Source: Elusimicrobiota bacterium (GTDB lineage Bacteria > Elusimicrobiota > Elusimicrobia > UBA1565 > UBA9628). From it: 27,084 nt of DNA. The notes beneath the pieces are model-generated. The model saw only the letters and a program-made list of their open reading frames with translations, made no database searches and was not told the origin of the DNA. The stretch lies in contig DAHVNA010000030.1 of the NCBI GenBank assembly GCA_027319565.1, positions 1 through 27,084 on the forward strand, written 5' to 3'. The position numbers and the translations under genes are program-made. Below are positions 4,855-15,418 of this stretch, one piece after another; position 1 is the first letter of the stretch; each line of letters begins with the position of its first letter.

Positions 4855-5336
4855 CGAATTTCTTCTTTAATGGGGCTTAGAACTCGAATCAAGAAATGAA
4901 ATCCCACCAGCAGAAAACCGAGCCAAATAATATCGGCCGAGGCCCAGGATGGAAAAGAAAAACTGCCGATTCTAAAAAGGGCGTGCCCATAGGTTTTTTC
5001 TTCGGCGGCGTATTCTCTCGCGGCAAAAGCCAAAAACAAAGAAGCGAGCGCGCCGGAGAGATTGGCGACGGCGGCAAACGCCCTTGATAGGATTTGATTC
5101 TTGGGCTTGGGCATCTCCCAGGCAAAATGCTTTCCTTGGGAAGCGGCAAAAGCCGCGCCTAAAAATCCCAGCCAAATCACCAGATGCCGCAACAAGGGAT
5201 CGGCCCATAAAATTCCAGAATGAAAAAAATCGCGCAAAACGACTTGAAAGAACGCCAGGAATATCATCAAGGACAATAGGACCACTAAAAGAGCGGTCTC
5301 AACCAGGGCTAAAGCCCGCTCAACGGGCTTTAGCAT
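4851..5336 (-). CDS. dctQ: TRAP transporter small permease (DctQ)
   Basis: Four TM segments; QVVLR...WADPLLRHLVIWLGFLGA...H pattern; lies between dctP and dctM. Confidence 0.88.
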   Translation of the reverse strand: MLKPVERALALVETALLVVLLSLMIFLAFFQVVLRDFFHSGILWADPLLRHLVIWLGFLGAAFAASQGKHFAWEMPKPKNQILSRAFAAVANLSGALASLFLAFAAREYAAEEKTYGHALFRIGSFSFPSWASADIIWLGFLLVGFHFLIRVLSPIKEEIR

Positions 5337-6369
5337 GATGACTGCGGAATGTTTGAAGGGAGTTCTGCACCTGGTCTAAAAATTTTTGCGAATAGAGTTT
5401 TCCCACCAAGGCTTCCCTGGCCTTCTGGCCCAAATTCTGGTATAACTTCATCACTTGAGGAGAAGGCTTCGGGCTTATCGTGAGCCCTTCTTTTTGAAGA
5501 GCGACTAGAGATTCCTCGTTTTCTCTTCGGGAAATGGCGTTAAGCCGCGTCAAATATTGATGACTCACTTTTTTAATGATCTGTTTTTGAGAAGGGCTCA
5601 AACGATCAAAAGTCTTTTTAGAGATTAAAACGGCGCCCGAGGCATAGGCTAAAGACACCGGGTCTATATATTGAGTCTTCGTAAACCATTGAAGGGCGGT
5701 GACCGCCAGCGGAGGGCCGTAAACCGTGTCGATCATGCCGGTTTGAAGAGAGGTCATCACGTCCAACTCCGAGAGGGGAATCGGGTTAATTCCCAAAACC
5801 TTAAAAGCCGCTTCGGCGATGGGGTCTCCCTCCCAAATCCAAATCTTATCTTTCTTAAGGGAATCTATACCTGAAAATGGATGCTGGCTAAAAAAATGGA
5901 CAAAGCCGAGATCGCTCCAGCCCAACAAGACAAAACCGCCTTTTAAAAACGCCTGTTCAAATTGAGCGCGGAATTTTTTTCTGATAAAATCAATTTCCGC
6001 GGTGTTTTTAAAAAGCCAGGGAGAATCAAGAACGCGGACTTTGGGCGCGATTTCCCCGAGCCCGAGGCCGGTAAACCCGCCGGCCTGCATTTCCCCGATC
6101 CGAATCTTTCTCAAAACGTCTTTCTCATCTCCGGCAACGCCCCCGGGATAAATTTTAAAAGAAACCTGGCCCTGGGTTTCTTTTTTAAGTTCCTGATTTA
6201 AATCCTTCATCGTATTCATCCACGCCGAACCCTCCGGAGCCAATGTCGCGAATTTAATCACGACCGGCTCTGAGTACAGCCAAGCGGGGCAAAGACCTAA
6301 GACAGCTAAAGACAAAACGGTTTTTTTAAATTTAGCGTAGCGATTCCAACGATTCTTTGCCTCTGGCAT
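5320..6369 (-). CDS. dctP: TRAP substrate-binding protein DctP (TatP-type)
   Basis: IKFATLAPEGSAW, YPGGVAGDE, LQTGMID; signal peptide after ATG 6369; alternative in-frame ATGs at 6378 (inside repeat) and 6477 (overlapping the tatT end). Confidence 0.88.
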   Translation of the reverse strand: MPEAKNRWNRYAKFKKTVLSLAVLGLCPAWLYSEPVVIKFATLAPEGSAWMNTMKDLNQELKKETQGQVSFKIYPGGVAGDEKDVLRKIRIGEMQAGGFTGLGLGEIAPKVRVLDSPWLFKNTAEIDFIRKKFRAQFEQAFLKGGFVLLGWSDLGFVHFFSQHPFSGIDSLKKDKIWIWEGDPIAEAAFKVLGINPIPLSELDVMTSLQTGMIDTVYGPPLAVTALQWFTKTQYIDPVSLAYASGAVLISKKTFDRLSPSQKQIIKKVSHQYLTRLNAISRRENEESLVALQKEGLTISPKPSPQVMKLYQNLGQKAREALVGKLYSQKFLDQVQNSLQTFRSHHAKAR

Positions 6370-6372
6370 TTT

Positions 6373-6446
6373 CGTCATTCCGACGAAAGTCGGAATCCAG
6401 AGCCGCAGAGAGGCTGGACCCCGGCTTACGACATGCCGGGGTGACG
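6373..6446. repeat. Palindromic doublet 1: A unit 6373-6400, 13-nt spacer, inverted B unit 6414-6446
   Basis: CGTC-ATTCCGAC-GAAA-GTCGGAAT-CCAG; reverse strand CGTC-ACCCCGGC-ATGTCGTAA-GCCGGGGT-CCAG. Confidence 0.92.
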
Positions 6447-6463
6447 ATTTAGGAACCACTACA

Positions 6464-7315
6464 TTAAAAGAGTTCATTTTCTTTCTCCAACAAACGGGCC
6501 GCCTTTTCCTTGGCGACCTCATCGGATAAACGGGCGTTCGGCAATTGGCCGGCCGGAAGATCTTTGACTTTCTTAAGCAAAGACTCAAACAAAGTCTGGT
6601 CCTGAACCGCGACGGCATAAGACTGGGCCTCCAAAACATATCCCATCAGATACTGGCCATGATTGAGGGCCTGGGCTTGGTCAAAGGAAGCCTTGGCTTT
6701 TTTAGGATTTCCCCCAAGCATGGGTGGCCGGGAATAATAAGTTCCAAAGAAAAGCTCCGGTCCGGCGAAATAATAGCCGGGGTTTATTTCTTTGACTCGC
6801 CGCATCATCGCCACGACTTTCGGCAAAGCCGCCAGGTTTTCCGGAGAATCTTTCTTGAGATTAATTTCTCCCGCCCAATTGAAAGCGGCCCAGAAAAGCG
6901 CCGGAACGTCTTTCTTGGACGCGCTTTTAAGCTCTTTTGACAGCGCCGCCAAATTTTCAGTTTTGATGTTTTTAAATTTCCCGCAATCGGACAGGGCTCT
7001 TAAAGCGTAATTTCTCCCTCGGCGATAAAAACCTTGGGCGCGAACGGGGTTTGAATCTTCGATGAAAAGAAAACTGTATCCGGCAAAACCCTGGGCGGCC
7101 AAAACCAGCAGTGAAGCGTTGCGTGGACTGTTATAAAGAAGCTCTTCAAGAAGTTTGAGTTGTGCGGGAAAAGCGTCCTGGGCAAAAGTCGGATCCGACT
7201 CATTGTAAAGAGCCCCCACTCCGCCCTTGATGACTTCGGCGGTTGAGCGCACGGCGATAGGGCGCAAGCTGCAGGCCGAAGCCAAAACGAGCAAAATCGG
7301 CAAGAATTTTTTCAA
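6464..7315 (-). CDS. tatT: TRAP transporter TatT component (TPR-like lipoprotein)
   Basis: Lipobox LASAC; ESDPTFAQDAFP, RGRNYALRAL, ALFWAAFNW, PPMLGGNPKKAKASF; directly upstream of dctP. Confidence 0.85.
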   Translation of the reverse strand: MKKFLPILLVLASACSLRPIAVRSTAEVIKGGVGALYNESDPTFAQDAFPAQLKLLEELLYNSPRNASLLVLAAQGFAGYSFLFIEDSNPVRAQGFYRRGRNYALRALSDCGKFKNIKTENLAALSKELKSASKKDVPALFWAAFNWAGEINLKKDSPENLAALPKVVAMMRRVKEINPGYYFAGPELFFGTYYSRPPMLGGNPKKAKASFDQAQALNHGQYLMGYVLEAQSYAVAVQDQTLFESLLKKVKDLPAGQLPNARLSDEVAKEKAARLLEKENELF

Positions 7316-9135: not shown

Positions 9136-9173
9136 CCAAAATTATTTTGAGGGGTTCCAGGCCAAGCCCCCAT

Positions 9174-9300
9174 CGTCATTCCGGCGACCGAGCATAGGCG
9201 AGGAAGTGCCGCCTCCAAGTCTGTTGGAAAGCGGCCGCAAGCCGGAACCTAGAACTCAGTCGAGAGACTGGACCCCGGCTTACGGCCTGCCGGGGTGACG
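9174..9300. repeat. Palindromic doublet 2: expanded A unit 9174-9252 (55-nt loop), 15-nt spacer, inverted B unit 9268-9300
   Basis: CGTC-ATTCCGGC-[55 nt]-GCCGGAAC-CTAG; B unit is 31/33 identical to 6414-6446. Confidence 0.85.
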
Positions 9301-9310
9301 GATTGTTTTT

Positions 9311-9666
9311 GGTCATTCCGGCGCAAGCCGGAATCCAGAGAACATGTCTAAGCAGCCCTGCGTTTATATCATTGCCAGTCGCCGCAATGGAACTCTTTAC
9401 GTCGGCGTGACCTCGAACTTGGCTCAACGCGTCTGGGAACATAAAAACGACGTTGTGGAAGGGTTTACCAAGAAATATAAGGTTCATAGCCTCGTCTGGT
9501 TTGAACTGCATGAAAGCATGGAATCGGCTACTGTGCGGGAAAAGGCCATTAAAGAATGGAAGCGACGCTGGAAATTAGAACTGATCGAGAGTGGAAACCA
9601 GGATTGGCGAGACCTTTATGATGACATCGTTTAAATATCTGGACCCCGATTTCCATCGGGGTGACG
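9311..9666 (+). mobile_element. Putative autonomous element: A hairpin - GIY-YIG gene - inverted B hairpin
   Basis: GGTC-ATTCCGGC-GCAA-GCCGGAAT-CCAG (9311-9338) ends 5 nt before the ATG; inverted CGTC-ACCCCGAT-GGAA-ATCGGGGT-CCAG (9639-9666) begins 4 nt after the stop; same A/B order as the short doublets; mobility is inferred. Confidence 0.6.
9344..9634 (+). CDS. Small standalone GIY-YIG nuclease (96 aa)
   Basis: CVYIIAS-RRNGT-LYVGVTSNLAQRVWEH, GFTKKY, conserved Glu in REKAIKEWKRRWK, C-terminal NQDWRDL. Confidence 0.93.
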   Translation: MSKQPCVYIIASRRNGTLYVGVTSNLAQRVWEHKNDVVEGFTKKYKVHSLVWFELHESMESATVREKAIKEWKRRWKLELIESGNQDWRDLYDDIV

Positions 9667-9668
9667 AA

Positions 9669-12626
9669 TTATTTTTTGTCATTCCCGGCCAAGGATTCCG
9701 CGCGCTCAATGAACAATCGGTATCTCTGCGAAAGATTAGGATCCTGATTTAAAAGAGCTGCGCTCTTAAAATCCGAAGCGGCATTTTCATATTGTCCCAT
9801 TTTTGTATAGGCCGAAGCCCGGTTGCGCCAATAGCGGGTGGCCATGGGGCTCAGTTCAATAGCCCGGCTAAAGGCGGCGATCGCTTTAGGATAATTGCCA
9901 AGGGCGAAATATCCCAACCCAAGACCGTTATAGGTCTGAGCGCTGGCCGGATCTTTCTGGACGGCAAGCGCATAATTATCAAGAGCTTTCTGAGGATCTT
10001 TCTGGAAATAACGGACATTGCCGCCCAAAAAGTAGGCGCGCGCGTTGTTGGCGTCCAGATTGAGAGCCGCGGAAATCTCGGAAAGAGCGTCTTGATATTC
10101 CTTGCGAAGAATCAACAAGGAAGCGAATTCGAGGCGGTAAGAAATATCATGCGGAGCCCCGGTAATGGCGCTTTCAAAATCAGTTTTAGCCGAATCATAG
10201 AGATGATAGGCGATATAGGCTTCTCCCCGAGCCGCCAGAATCTGCGGGTTAGAAGGCAAAATATCCAAGGCCTTGGAATAGCGCGTAATCGCCTCGTCAA
10301 AACGGCCAGCGTTGGCGTCGGCATCGGCTTTGATGAGCAAAAGATAAGGGTCGATTTTATCGTCCGGAGACAAAGGCGCCGCTTCGGCAATCGCCTGATA
10401 GAAATCGTTTTTCGTATCATGCGGCACGGCAAAACCGATTTCCGGGGAATGAGCGAGAGGAAGCAAAAGATTGGCCGCCCGATAATCCTCATGCGCCTGC
10501 CGGTAATGATGGGAAGCGGCATGGGCGACGGCCTTGGCCAAATAGAGCTGGGATTTTCTCAAGCCCAGAATAATGGCGCGATTGAGATTGTCGATCGTCT
10601 CCCGCGCTTTATGGCGATCCAGATACGACAATCCCAACTGAAAATAAGCCTCGGCAAAGGAAGGATCGACTTCCAAGGCCTGATTGCAAAAGGGAATGGC
10701 TTTCTCGGGCTTCTTAAGAACCCGCCAAGCCTCGCAAATTCCGGTCAAAGCCCGCCTTGAACGCGGCTTGACTTTCAAGGCCTCTTGAAATTCTTTTAAA
10801 GCCTCCTTGGCGTCTCCCGAGGCTCCTTCGGCGCGGGCCAAATAAATTGGGTAAGAAGGATTTTTTTCATCCAAATCGGCGGCCCGGCCCAAAAATTTCA
10901 CGGCATGGGCGTAATCATTGACCCGCCAATAGAGAAGCCCCTTGGCATAATAAGCCGGGGCGTATTTCGGATTTTTGCCGAGAACCGCGTCCACGTCTTT
11001 AAGTCCATGGGTCAGATCTCCCAAGCGCGAGTAAACCTTCGCCCTTGTGCTGAGAACTAGTTTTGAATCTTCTCCCAATTTCAGAGCTTCCCCCAGGGAT
11101 TTAAGCGCTCCCAAAAAATCCGACATCTTATATTGAACTACTCCCAGGTTGTATTGATAGACGGGCGATTTGGGAGCCAAAGAAACCGCCTTTAGCAGAT
11201 CTTTAAGCCCGGTTTCTTTTTGATGGAGCATTTCCGCTTCGATGACGCCGCGATCGTTATAGGCCTTGGCGTTTTGCGGTTCGGCTGCGATCGCGGTATT
11301 TAAATCCTCCAAAGCTTTTTCCGGATGATGGGTAAAAGCGTAAAGCCCGGCCCGCGAGAGGCGGACAAAGACGTCTTGCGGAGAAATCCCCACCGCCTGG
11401 TCTAAATCGTCTAAAGCCTTGTCCTTGTCTCCCTCTTCTTCTTCAATTTGAGCTCTTAAGGCCCACGGAGTCGGGGAGCTTGGCCCCATTTCAATGGCCA
11501 AGGACAAATCCTTTAGCGCCGCCTTGGGGTCTCCATTGTTTTTTTCCAGGTTCGCCCGCCTTAAAATCGCGGTCAAGAAAATTTTCGCGCAGGGAGCTTT
11601 TAAGCACAGGCTTTCATCGACCGCCTTGGAATAGGCGAGACTCGCGGCCTTGATATTTTTATTTTGAGCGAAATAGTCTCCAATTTGAATGGCCTGGGGA
11701 GGAGACAACCAATAAAGACCCAGGGCCTCGCGGTAGTCTTTTTCCGCTTTCGATTTTTTTCCATATGCAAAATAGGCCTTGGCCCTTTCCAAGTAAGGCT
11801 TCTCATCCCCGCCCGATTCTTGAACGGCGCGGTCCAGATTTTCGAAGGCGGCCGTGCTTTGCTTGGCGGCAAATTCAAGACGAGACAACTCCAAATAAGG
11901 GCGATCGTCGTCGGGGTTGAGCTTCAAGGCTTTTTCATATGCCTCTTCCGCGCGCTCTGAATCGCCTTTTTGAAATAAAATATTTCCCAAAAGGATATAC
12001 GCCTCGATATCCGATGGATTTTTTTTCATGACCCCGATGAGATCCTTCAAAGAGGCGCCTAATTTCTTTTCCTTATATAAGATGAAGGCCCGCTGATAAA
12101 GGTAAAGCGGCGACGGTTCGGCCTCGATTTGAATCGCGTCGTTGATATCGCTAAAAGCTTCCTCGTATTTTCCCAGGGATTGATAGGCCAAGGATCTCCC
12201 GGCCAGGACTTCGGGGGTTTTAATTCCGCGGCTGAGCATCTCCGCATATGCCTCCAGGGCCAAGGCGCCCTCGCCTCGGATTTCAAAGGAGATTCCGGCG
12301 GCCAATAACTCTCCGGCACGCATTTGAGAAAAAGGAGTCGAATGATGAGCGAATATCCAATTGGCATCCTTGACCGCGTCTTCGACATTGCCCAGATGTT
12401 CTTCAATGGAAGCCTCAAGCCCCCGGGAGCGCAGCCAATCAGGATCGGCTTTGATGGTCTCTTTGGCGTAAACTAAGGCCTTGTCAAAATGGGTGTCCAA
12501 ATACATTTCCACCGCCCTTTGATACAGACTGCGGGGACGGTGGGGATTACTAGCCCAGGCTGGTGCGGACAAAAAGACCAGTGACAGAACCCAAAGCTCT
12601 ATTTTCAATCTTGATTGCATAGACAT
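9669..12626 (-). CDS. Large exported tetratricopeptide-repeat protein (985 aa)
   Basis: Signal peptide (VFLSAPAWA); TPR periodicity along the whole length (e.g. AYILLGNILFQKGDSERAEEAYEKALKLNP). Confidence 0.9.
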   Translation of the reverse strand: MSMQSRLKIELWVLSLVFLSAPAWASNPHRPRSLYQRAVEMYLDTHFDKALVYAKETIKADPDWLRSRGLEASIEEHLGNVEDAVKDANWIFAHHSTPFSQMRAGELLAAGISFEIRGEGALALEAYAEMLSRGIKTPEVLAGRSLAYQSLGKYEEAFSDINDAIQIEAEPSPLYLYQRAFILYKEKKLGASLKDLIGVMKKNPSDIEAYILLGNILFQKGDSERAEEAYEKALKLNPDDDRPYLELSRLEFAAKQSTAAFENLDRAVQESGGDEKPYLERAKAYFAYGKKSKAEKDYREALGLYWLSPPQAIQIGDYFAQNKNIKAASLAYSKAVDESLCLKAPCAKIFLTAILRRANLEKNNGDPKAALKDLSLAIEMGPSSPTPWALRAQIEEEEGDKDKALDDLDQAVGISPQDVFVRLSRAGLYAFTHHPEKALEDLNTAIAAEPQNAKAYNDRGVIEAEMLHQKETGLKDLLKAVSLAPKSPVYQYNLGVVQYKMSDFLGALKSLGEALKLGEDSKLVLSTRAKVYSRLGDLTHGLKDVDAVLGKNPKYAPAYYAKGLLYWRVNDYAHAVKFLGRAADLDEKNPSYPIYLARAEGASGDAKEALKEFQEALKVKPRSRRALTGICEAWRVLKKPEKAIPFCNQALEVDPSFAEAYFQLGLSYLDRHKARETIDNLNRAIILGLRKSQLYLAKAVAHAASHHYRQAHEDYRAANLLLPLAHSPEIGFAVPHDTKNDFYQAIAEAAPLSPDDKIDPYLLLIKADADANAGRFDEAITRYSKALDILPSNPQILAARGEAYIAYHLYDSAKTDFESAITGAPHDISYRLEFASLLILRKEYQDALSEISAALNLDANNARAYFLGGNVRYFQKDPQKALDNYALAVQKDPASAQTYNGLGLGYFALGNYPKAIAAFSRAIELSPMATRYWRNRASAYTKMGQYENAASDFKSAALLNQDPNLSQRYRLFIERAESLAGNDKK

Positions 12627-14365: not shown

Positions 14366-14431
14366 AAAACGCCTCTACCGCGTGCATAATGAAAGCGTCG
14401 CCGGAGATAGGGACAGTCCCCCACAGACTGC

Positions 14432-14501
14432 CGTCATTCCGGCGAAAGCCGGAATCCAGAACCACGCGGACAACTGGACCCCGGCTTTCGCCGGGGTGAC
14501 G
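14432..14501. repeat. Palindromic doublet 4: A unit 14432-14459, 14-nt spacer, inverted B unit 14474-14501
   Basis: CGTC-ATTCCGGC-GAAA-GCCGGAAT-CCAG; reverse strand CGTC-ACCCCGGC-GAAA-GCCGGGGT-CCAG. Confidence 0.93.
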
Positions 14502-15290
14502 GAGAAAGTCAACACGCCGGATTATTCGGAAGCGGAACATCCTGATGATTTTGCGGTTGTCGTCGGAGTCGAGAAATACGCTCAGGACTTGCCTGCGGCG
14601 GAATTTGCCGATGAGGACGCCACGGCCTTTCGCGCGCATTTAATCGCTTTGGGAGTTCCAGCGCGACATATCGTTTACCTTTCGGATGAGCGGGCGGGAA
14701 GAAGCGAACTGGTCAAAAACATTGAGCGCTGGCTGCCTAAAAATGTTAAACCCGACTCCCGCGTCTATTTTTATTTCTCGGGACACGGCGCTCCCGATCC
14801 CGCGACCGGCAACGCCTATATTTTGCCCTTTAGCGGCGACCCTTCGGACCTTTCTGACACCGCCTACCCTTTAAGCCGCCTCTACGCCAGTCTTGAAAAA
14901 CTTAAAGTTCATCATGTCATCGTGGCGTTGGACTCCTGCTTTTCAGGCGCGGGCGGGCGTTCCGTCATCGCTGAAGGCACGCGCCCCTTGGTCAATCGCG
15001 TCAAAGAAGGAGTTGTCCCGCGAAACGGAAAACTGCTCGTTCTCACCGCCTCAAAATCCGACCAAACCTCGGGAGTTCTTAAAGACAAGAGGCACGGGAC
15101 TTTCACTTACTATCTGCTTAAAGGCTTAAACGGCAAGGCTCTTGATTCTAAAAACCACGTAACGATGGATTCTCTCTACCGCTACCTCGCCCCCAAGGTC
15201 GAAGACGCCGCGCATTTAGACGACCGCGATCAAAACCCGCAGCTTTTGCCCAAAAACGCCCGCTCCGCCGAAAATTTGACGCTGAGATAA
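14496..15290 (+). CDS. Caspase-family (peptidase C14) protein; start uncertain
   Basis: FAVVVGVEKY, YFSGHG (catalytic His), LDSCFSG (catalytic Cys), HGTFTYYLLKGL, QNPQ; candidate GTG starts at 14496 (inside repeat) or 14382. Confidence 0.85.
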   Translation: MTEKVNTPDYSEAEHPDDFAVVVGVEKYAQDLPAAEFADEDATAFRAHLIALGVPARHIVYLSDERAGRSELVKNIERWLPKNVKPDSRVYFYFSGHGAPDPATGNAYILPFSGDPSDLSDTAYPLSRLYASLEKLKVHHVIVALDSCFSGAGGRSVIAEGTRPLVNRVKEGVVPRNGKLLVLTASKSDQTSGVLKDKRHGTFTYYLLKGLNGKALDSKNHVTMDSLYRYLAPKVEDAAHLDDRDQNPQLLPKNARSAENLTLR

Positions 15291-15390: not shown

Positions 15391-15418
15391 TTGGATTCCG
15401 GCTTACGCCGGAATGAGG
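15391..15418 (-). repeat. Solo A-type hairpin in reverse orientation with degenerate tags
   Basis: Reverse strand CCTC-ATTCCGGC-GTAA-GCCGGAAT-CCAA between convergent genes. Confidence 0.8.

Follow-up and report, generated by a model that had tools for sequence, protein, structure and literature searches.

How a small nuclease gene came to lie between two tagged hairpins, and whether its product spreads them, is the question raised by positions 9,311 to 9,666 of a 27,084-nt stretch of Elusimicrobiota DNA (hereafter the window; contig C35 of genome G000, 2.03 Mb, 91.65% complete). The first-pass annotation, made from the sequence alone, described this unit as a candidate autonomous REPIN-like element with a non-RAYT nuclease, for which no mechanism had been characterised. 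Since the pairing of a GIY-YIG gene with hairpins is already known, the locus is not a new system; rather, we identify it as a new member of the known Ssn/SRM system, with useful mobility evidence. Our preferred reading, to which we give a probability of roughly 0.6, is that the Ssn gene and its SRM flanks form part of a mosaic cassette, and that hairpins and cassette are spread by host recombination or by MITEs and not by Ssn cut-and-paste.

The layout of the locus (Table 1) agrees exactly with the bracket first described: the ssn open reading frame, with its ATG at 9344, 96 codons and a TAA at 9632-9634, lies 5 nt after hairpin A and 4 nt before the inverted hairpin B, in a unit of 356 bp. 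The CGTC tags ascribed to the flanking hairpins were found for B, whereas the tag of A reads GGTC; in both hairpins the tag G and the C that follows the stem are retained. The three doublets reported for the window, with spacers of 13-15 nt, are likewise present (13, 15 and 14 nt in order of position), and the middle one lies 10 nt upstream of hairpin A and came in together with it. Scanning the whole 2.03-Mb genome for tagged hairpins returned 43 matches, a few of them overlapping, against 0, 3, 0, 0 and 0 in five shuffles, and the first base of the tag was C in 36, T in 13 and G in 2 of 51 cases. The published degenerate SRM pattern, a search aid and not a definition, gave 37 matches across the genome compared with 4-10 in three simulations, and matches three of the seven window hairpins, neither of the flanking ones among them. 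The insert in the loop of hairpin A' is a copy of a 51-57-nt module (window 9185-9235; 13 loci in G000; also in G004, L124) that occurs in A-hairpin loops or standing alone. This module is a second repeat type in the hairpin mosaic, and presumably resembles other CGTC families. Also observed was a caspase-like Peptidase_C14 open reading frame (14502-15290, + strand, E 8e-11) directly 3' of the third doublet, where gene content varies among congeners. A short palindrome of the GGGACAGTCCC type (window 14413-14421, and many junctions in G001, G003 and G005) recurs intergenically in the genus, often at the positions of SRM doublets in G000.

Table 1. Coordinates of the hairpins, the nuclease gene, the gained DNA and the IS630-type shells (window positions unless a contig of G000 is named).
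Feature	Position	Strand	Evidence
IS630-type MITE shell around doublet 6373-6400/6414-6446	6332-6467	.	left end 23/33 alike to an L240 end; profile match; absent in G001, G002, G003, G005
527-bp segment absent from close relatives (equivalently 9167-9693)	9154-9680	.	empty sites in G001, G002, G003, G005; 527-nt contig skip
Left copy of imperfect 13-bp duplication; together with adjoining bases on the left, contains what was formerly the TPR gene's 3' end, now displaced	9154-9166	+	sequence
Hairpin A', 51-nt loop insert; left arm of upstream doublet; in gained DNA	9174-9252	+	insert recurs at 13 G000 loci; contig joint skipping 51 nt
Hairpin B with 9-nt loop; right arm of upstream doublet; in gained DNA	9268-9300	-	sequence, hairpin scan
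Hairpin A, SRM/NTS-like, CGTC-1-type REP; 8-bp stem, 4-nt loop, tag GGTC	9311-9338	+	sequence; fold z -4.8 for the stretch holding A
ssn gene, 96-aa single-domain GIY-YIG nuclease (Ssn/SsnA family)	9344-9634	+	PF01541 E 4.9e-16; 55/93 identity to N. gonorrhoeae copy; invariant residues
Hairpin B (SRM), inverted; 8-bp stem, 4-nt loop, tag CGTC	9639-9666	-	sequence; fold z -3.0 for the stretch holding B
Linker, truncated A arm and right duplication copy (9681-9693); present last codons and stop of the TPR gene (- strand)	9667-9693	+	sequence; C43 recurrence
A+B doublet, 14-nt spacer	14432-14459/14474-14501	.	sequence; G003 also has a hairpin there, so not an empty site
Solo degenerate A hairpin, tag damaged	15391-15418	-	sequence
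Further IS630-type shells with SRM doublets in G000	C22:35172-35307, C23:157464-157611, C15:30488-30625, C20, C14

The 96-aa product consists of one GIY-YIG domain (PF01541, residues 5-78, E 4.9e-16 in Pfam); no NCBIfam model scored above its cut-off for this protein, and a search of solved structures returned no close relative (best E 0.034). The homology criterion of Chenal et al. 2025 (PMC11893778) was a match at E < 1e-10 over > 75% of the length, with a strict set at 60% identity. Compared with the N. gonorrhoeae copy, a 94-aa protein whose gene sits in NTS arrays, the window protein gave a tblastn E of 6e-33 with 97% covered and 59.1% identity (55/93), slightly below the strict cut of that paper. 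Its residues Y8, Y19 and E66 correspond at equal spacing to Y6, Y17 and E64 of the gonococcal copy, and together with G21, R29, H33, K70, K77 and W88 they are invariant in all 85 rows of an alignment from which one duplicate row was left out. Judged by its sequence, the protein almost certainly belongs to the Ssn family. One weak 31-residue match from PADLOC was not accepted as evidence of a role in defence.

Contrary to the initial statement that this pairing lacks a characterised mechanism, Chenal et al. 2025 (PMC11893778) reported binding and cleavage together with a role in transformation. In that work, the Ssn family (CDD cd10448, GIY-YIG_unchar_3) comprises GIY-YIG proteins of 94 aa, and NTS/SRM hairpins flank their genes on at least one side in 71% of homologues and on both in 42%. 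SsnA bound the hairpin as ssDNA only and cut in its 5' flank, an NTS75 oligonucleotide yielding a 20-nt product that corresponds to a cut 4 nt before the tag; the substitutions Y6A, Y17A and E64A abolished cutting, and hydrolytic cleavage specific to hairpins and to ssDNA was demonstrated for four homologues (PMC11893778). The proposal that the GIY-YIG protein recognises the tagged hairpins is thus borne out in print for the family, which binds them and cuts at them on ssDNA. In N. meningitidis, SsnA lowered the integration of NTS-bearing DNA, indicating a role in transformation, and the NTS-ssnA-NTS arrangement was called IS-like and compared, as a hypothesis, with REP/BIME transposases (PMC11893778). 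SsnA-associated repeats are already a benchmark class in a 2026 preprint (10.64898/2026.09.22.753630). The repeats were also described as CGTC-1 REPs by Di Nocera et al. 2013 (PMC3733652), with a CGTC/TGTC tag, an 8-bp stem, a 4-nt loop and a CCA tail, mostly as head-to-head dimers, some of them in frame within genes and some nested in longer palindromes; the Neisseria members are dRS3, and the available sections of that paper report no dedicated transposase or other enzyme. All of the tag, stem, loop, tail and dimer features were found in the G000 repeats, some B copies having 9-nt loops. The literature covered, which lay mostly outside subscription journals, yielded no paper showing Ssn mobilisation or tying these doublets to IS630 ends.

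The enrichment of flanking CGTC hairpins among homologues, which the first-pass annotation had proposed to look for, was clearly apparent. The best 80 of 389 confirmed relatives in GTDB were fetched, and with four omitted for flanks that were too short, the remaining 76 loci form a set biased to close relatives. Within these, a tagged hairpin was present within 150 nt upstream in 64, downstream in 67 and on both sides in 58, compared with 7 of the 901 control windows and none of the 13 loci with other GIY-YIG genes. The nearest pair was arranged A(+)/B(-) in 38 of the 58 doubly flanked homologues, and a tight bracket (<=20 nt on both sides) was found in 20 of the 76 and was missing in 56. The 146 flanks of the homologues fell into 98 neighbourhood clusters, the largest containing five, and the ssn copies among the best 80 of the 389 spanned at least eight phyla at 66-79% identity. 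These data do not prove transfer from one phylum to another, since the quick ssn tree was poorly resolved (6 of 82 branches strong); labels changed 21 times on it, where 8 is the minimum and shuffling gave a mean of 26.5, and we rejected this mostly unresolved tree as proof of transfer. No phage carriage of ssn was detected in 50,697 phage records at E 1e-15, and 20 of the 31 "plasmid" matches listed correspond to chromosomes or large replicons. One 2.17-Mb record filed as a plasmid (L139, NZ_CP119140.1) is suggestive of a chromosome in its size and content.

Within its own lineage, the gene is patchy: a close ssn (74-79%) was identified in 3 of 60 relatives and in none of the five congeners. 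The suggested correlation between repeat number and gene presence held in part. The four ssn-bearing genomes possess 26, 9, 172 and 159 hairpins, whereas of the 57 genomes without ssn, 48 have zero, eight have 1-7 and G004 has 142, in a comparison among genomes that are kin and not independent. The G004 assembly (97% complete) yielded no ssn and no Y1 transposase, and its small GIY-YIG gene (L219) was judged not to be an Ssn because the window-protein query does not match it; with 142 hairpins and no ssn found, G004 indicates that gene and repeats are not strictly coupled. The description of the enzyme as a non-RAYT nuclease is supported, with no PF01797 match for a RAYT/Y1 transposase in G000 (91.65% complete). 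A RAYT was also rejected as hairpin partner on the lack of a PF01797 match in G000 or G004, and among the Y1 loci of relatives one of nine has a single hairpin within 1.5 kb.

A second ssn copy was identified on contig C34 of G000, 92% alike over 289 nt, with a +1 frameshift, an early stop, a 5' hairpin tail in common with the window copy and no B end; the extra base responsible for the frameshift is also present in contigs of runs X1 and X4. This copy lies in a 1.4-kb insertion (98040-99408, L149) that is absent from G003 and comprises a loop-insert hairpin, a 223-aa open reading frame, a hairpin and the frameshifted ssn, and looks like a hairpin-bounded composite with cargo. The 223-aa passenger is membrane-protein-like. 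At the same site G005 carries a different insertion, of 5.9 kb, on which account the site may be a general hot spot.

Empty sites in relatives had also been proposed as a check, and four of the five congeners (G001, G002, G003 and G005) provide them. In these genomes no hairpin separates the upstream 336-aa gene from the TPR gene, the ends of which are some 50 nt or less apart, while in G004 the two genes lie on different contigs with other DNA beyond them. Relative to G003 the extra DNA amounts to a net 529 bp; a metagenome contig ~90% alike (run X5) shows a clean 527-nt skip, running from 9153 to 9681, and in further contigs of X1, X4 and X5 the skip is 579 nt with 56 letters between. The 527-nt skip of the empty allele implies that the gained DNA consisted of the upstream doublet, A-ssn-B and the linker. 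Hence, although the 356-bp A-ssn-B layout is exact, the DNA gained here measures 527 bp and reaches beyond A and B. The gain was likely recent, its direction being taken by parsimony from four congeners and the metagenome contigs. The 13-bp repeats that bound it are alike at 11 of 13 positions and resemble the first arm and loop of a hairpin; a 33-bp duplication, proposed from the G003 alignment, was narrowed to these 13 bp by the closer empty allele. The cassette landed within the TPR gene, among its last codons, and brought it a new stop; the cassette ends lie 3 nt (left) and at least 10 nt (right) from the predicted Ssn cuts. On contig C43 (6597-6690), a B hairpin, the same linker, the truncated A arm and the left-end bases of the cassette follow one another in a single run (linker-to-left-end part 6619-6690), which is the junction expected if the window array formed a circle or was copied in tandem; as one example, it could also be a rearranged copy formed without any circle. 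Some contigs jump from A to B over the gene, or turn back; these joints have short sides of 28-33 letters that fit other repeat copies, and were rejected as signs of excision.

These observations bear on the idea that A-ssn-B is an autonomous REPIN-like element, with Ssn alone excising or copying and inserting the unit and the short doublets as its non-autonomous derivatives. The tags of both hairpins face outward, so that predicted cuts fall outside both ends, in favour of such an element; the unit actually gained, however, is the 527-bp one, with ends displaced from those cuts. Similarly, the A(+)/B(-) order and the tight bracket recur among homologues, yet most of the homologues lack the latter. 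The 26-172 hairpins in three of the four ssn-bearing genomes, their lack in most of the others, the absence of a detectable RAYT in G000 and the IS-like layout remarked on by Chenal et al. 2025 (PMC11893778) all speak for such an element, but the flanks of doublet insertions are variable and 7 of 25 doublet loci adjoin the ends of another element, described below. Fixed ends at the hairpins, with a constant target duplication at several sites, were not observed. GIY-YIG chemistry is hydrolytic, with no strand-transfer step that we know of, and we consider this explanation unlikely.

To examine the doublets themselves, 22 of 56 loose repeat clusters were compared with G003 and G005: 15 aligned on both sides with both genomes, two lay outside the compared DNA, three were too rearranged, and the remaining two were the C34 case and the window doublet at 14432, where G003 too has a hairpin. 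The hairpin unit was absent from both congeners at all 15 aligned sites, and the extra DNA was usually larger than this unit by variable amounts, with no constant duplication length. A fixed-length target duplication for all doublets was rejected, with only C11:4786 (16 nt) above the null maximum of 12 (200 draws). Ends fixed 4 nt outside the tags, as predicted from SsnA cutting, were also rejected, no conserved base or boundary being found there. At C11:4757-4899 of G000, a 158-bp doublet insertion with an exact 16-bp flanking duplication was observed, the site being empty in G003 and G005.

Several doublets have outer flanks in common, and one class of these ends in CTAGTGTAGTG, found in 13 of 301 genomes of the phylum. 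In the congener G001, such ends bracket a 1,140-bp element encoding a 363-aa DDE_3/HTH transposase (L240:376-1515), a domain set that we take to be of IS630 type; the G000 assembly yielded no homologue of this transposase. When 18 ends of this kind from other genomes were combined in a profile, it identified 16 sites in G000 and none in the reversed genome, and at 13 of the 16 a hairpin starts within ~40 nt (null 0). These ends adjoin 7 of the 25 doublet loci, the window doublet at 6373-6446 among them, and neither the other 18 nor the ssn cassette has such an end. Identity to the L240 ends is 23/33 for the window left end, 28/33 for C22 and 24/33 for C23, and the copies possess both the terminal inverted repeats of the autonomous element and the TA(G) duplication characteristic of IS630-type MITEs, the right end of the window copy being short and decayed. 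The window MITE has added 132 bp, in frame, to the 5' end of a DctP-family gene and is missing in four congeners. This gene (5323-6476, - strand), the N-terminus of which is longer by 44 MITE-encoded codons (compare the in-frame palindromic elements of Rickettsia), belongs to a TRAP transporter operon in which a TAtT lipoprotein gene occupies 6464-7315. A second doublet subfamily in G000 (C67:52693, C14:5684, C11:16855 and C56:59605) has outer flanks in common that end in GTAAC and GTTAC, 11-16 nt past the tags.

The same IS630-type shells bracket different hairpin interiors in G014, G028, G160 and G225, and from these varied interiors the shell seems to capture varied repeat cores. With such ends at 7 of 25 loci, the doublets likely travel, at least in part, in the MITE of another enzyme. 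The first-pass annotation had treated the short doublets as MITE-like non-autonomous derivatives of the nuclease element; because several sit inside IS630-type ends, they are not simply its internal-deletion derivatives.

A more sweeping explanation would make hairpins and ssn alike passengers of DDE transposases (IS630-type MITEs and others) and of ordinary horizontal transfer, with Ssn having no part in their spread. The full-length element of G001, the proximity of hairpins to 13 of the 16 end matches, the shells around unrelated interiors in G014, G028 and G160, and the 142 hairpins of G004, where no ssn was found, are each consistent with this possibility. It nevertheless leaves 18 of the 25 doublet loci and the ssn cassette itself without a vehicle end, finds no homologue of the transposase in the G000 assembly, and must account for a close coupling of gene and hairpins across phyla, which needs a link that passengers would not keep; we regard it as distinctly improbable. 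The remaining candidate, a domesticated host factor that cuts incoming hairpin-bearing ssDNA and so tunes natural transformation, as demonstrated for N. meningitidis (PMC11893778), with mobility incidental, is very doubtful here: the window ssn is intact with all invariant residues and G000 encodes ComEC and DprA family proteins, but matches to both occur also in 10 of 14 control genomes and so do not demonstrate competence, ssn was not found in any of the five congeners, the second copy is broken, and the hairpins number only some tens.

The preferred reading, in which an Ssn gene with SRM flanks is carried in a mosaic cassette spread by host recombination or MITEs, might operate as follows. 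The window copy of Ssn, presumed active, is predicted to bind hairpins on ssDNA and to make its cut ~4 nt 5' of the tag. Repair of such breaks by host recombination would likely spread the cassette and hairpins, with some doublets likely carried by IS630-type MITEs. The one junction on C43 suggests that a crossover at the half-hairpin-like 13-bp site may have brought the cassette in, as a circle or as a tandem array, and Ssn cuts could promote recombination events of this kind. More tentatively, and at well below even odds, Ssn/SRM may be a transposase-free mobile system in which arrays freed by Ssn cuts in ssDNA circularise or concatemerise and re-enter the chromosome at half-hairpin look-alikes through host recombination, which would yield the permuted 527-bp cassette of the window, while IS630 MITEs subsequently capture and amplify the doublets. 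If true, this transposase-free Ssn route would supply the missing spread mechanism for the orphan CGTC REP superfamily.

The locus bears on a question left, in their available sections, by Chenal et al. 2025 and Di Nocera et al. 2013, namely how CGTC/SRM hairpins and the nuclease gene spread. Its contributions are a pair of alleles, one filled and one empty, whose ends are placed within 13 bp, a half-hairpin-like target, and a second vehicle in the form of IS630-type MITE ends, which are concrete substrates for a mobility test of Ssn-driven spread. For ssDNA tools, it also adds another natural pair of Ssn and hairpin that differs in stem sequence.

Among known systems, the closest is Ssn/SRM as described by Chenal et al. 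2025, with which the locus has in common a single GIY-YIG domain of ~95 aa, the Y6/Y17/E64 triad (here Y8/Y19/E66), 59% identity to the N. gonorrhoeae copy, a hairpin with CGTC tag, 8-bp stem, 4-nt loop and C after the stem, and hairpins on both sides (42% of homologues in that paper, 58 of 76 here). It differs in the stem variants ATTCCGGC and ACCCCGAT, in a GGTC tag outside the published SRM pattern, in its A/B heterodimers, and in a patchy lineage with empty sites and mapped insertion ends, which the available sections of that paper do not describe. With the CGTC-1 REPs of Di Nocera et al. 2013 the repeats share tag, 8-bp stem, 4-nt loop, CCA tail, head-to-head dimers and in-frame and nested copies; unlike that description, ssn is the partner gene here and in Chenal et al. 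2025, where the 2013 paper is not cited, and one outer-palindrome class is traced here to IS630-type ends. The RAYT/REPIN system (TnpA-REP, Y1 HUH) likewise places a small enzyme gene between tagged hairpins, with dispersed inverted doublets, mosaic arrays and recognition of hairpins on ssDNA. RAYT/REPIN repeats, however, carry a GTAG tag and their Y1 transposase forms a covalent intermediate, whereas here the tag is CGTC, the enzyme is a GIY-YIG hydrolase and G000 has no PF01797 match. Finally, as in IS630-family MITEs, examples of which are Correia elements and RUP, the shells described here possess ~33-bp terminal inverted repeats in common with a full DDE_3/HTH element of a congener, CTAG-type ends and a TA(G) duplication at empty sites; they are distinguished by an interior that is an SRM doublet, and they surround 7 of the 25 doublet loci and not the ssn cassette.
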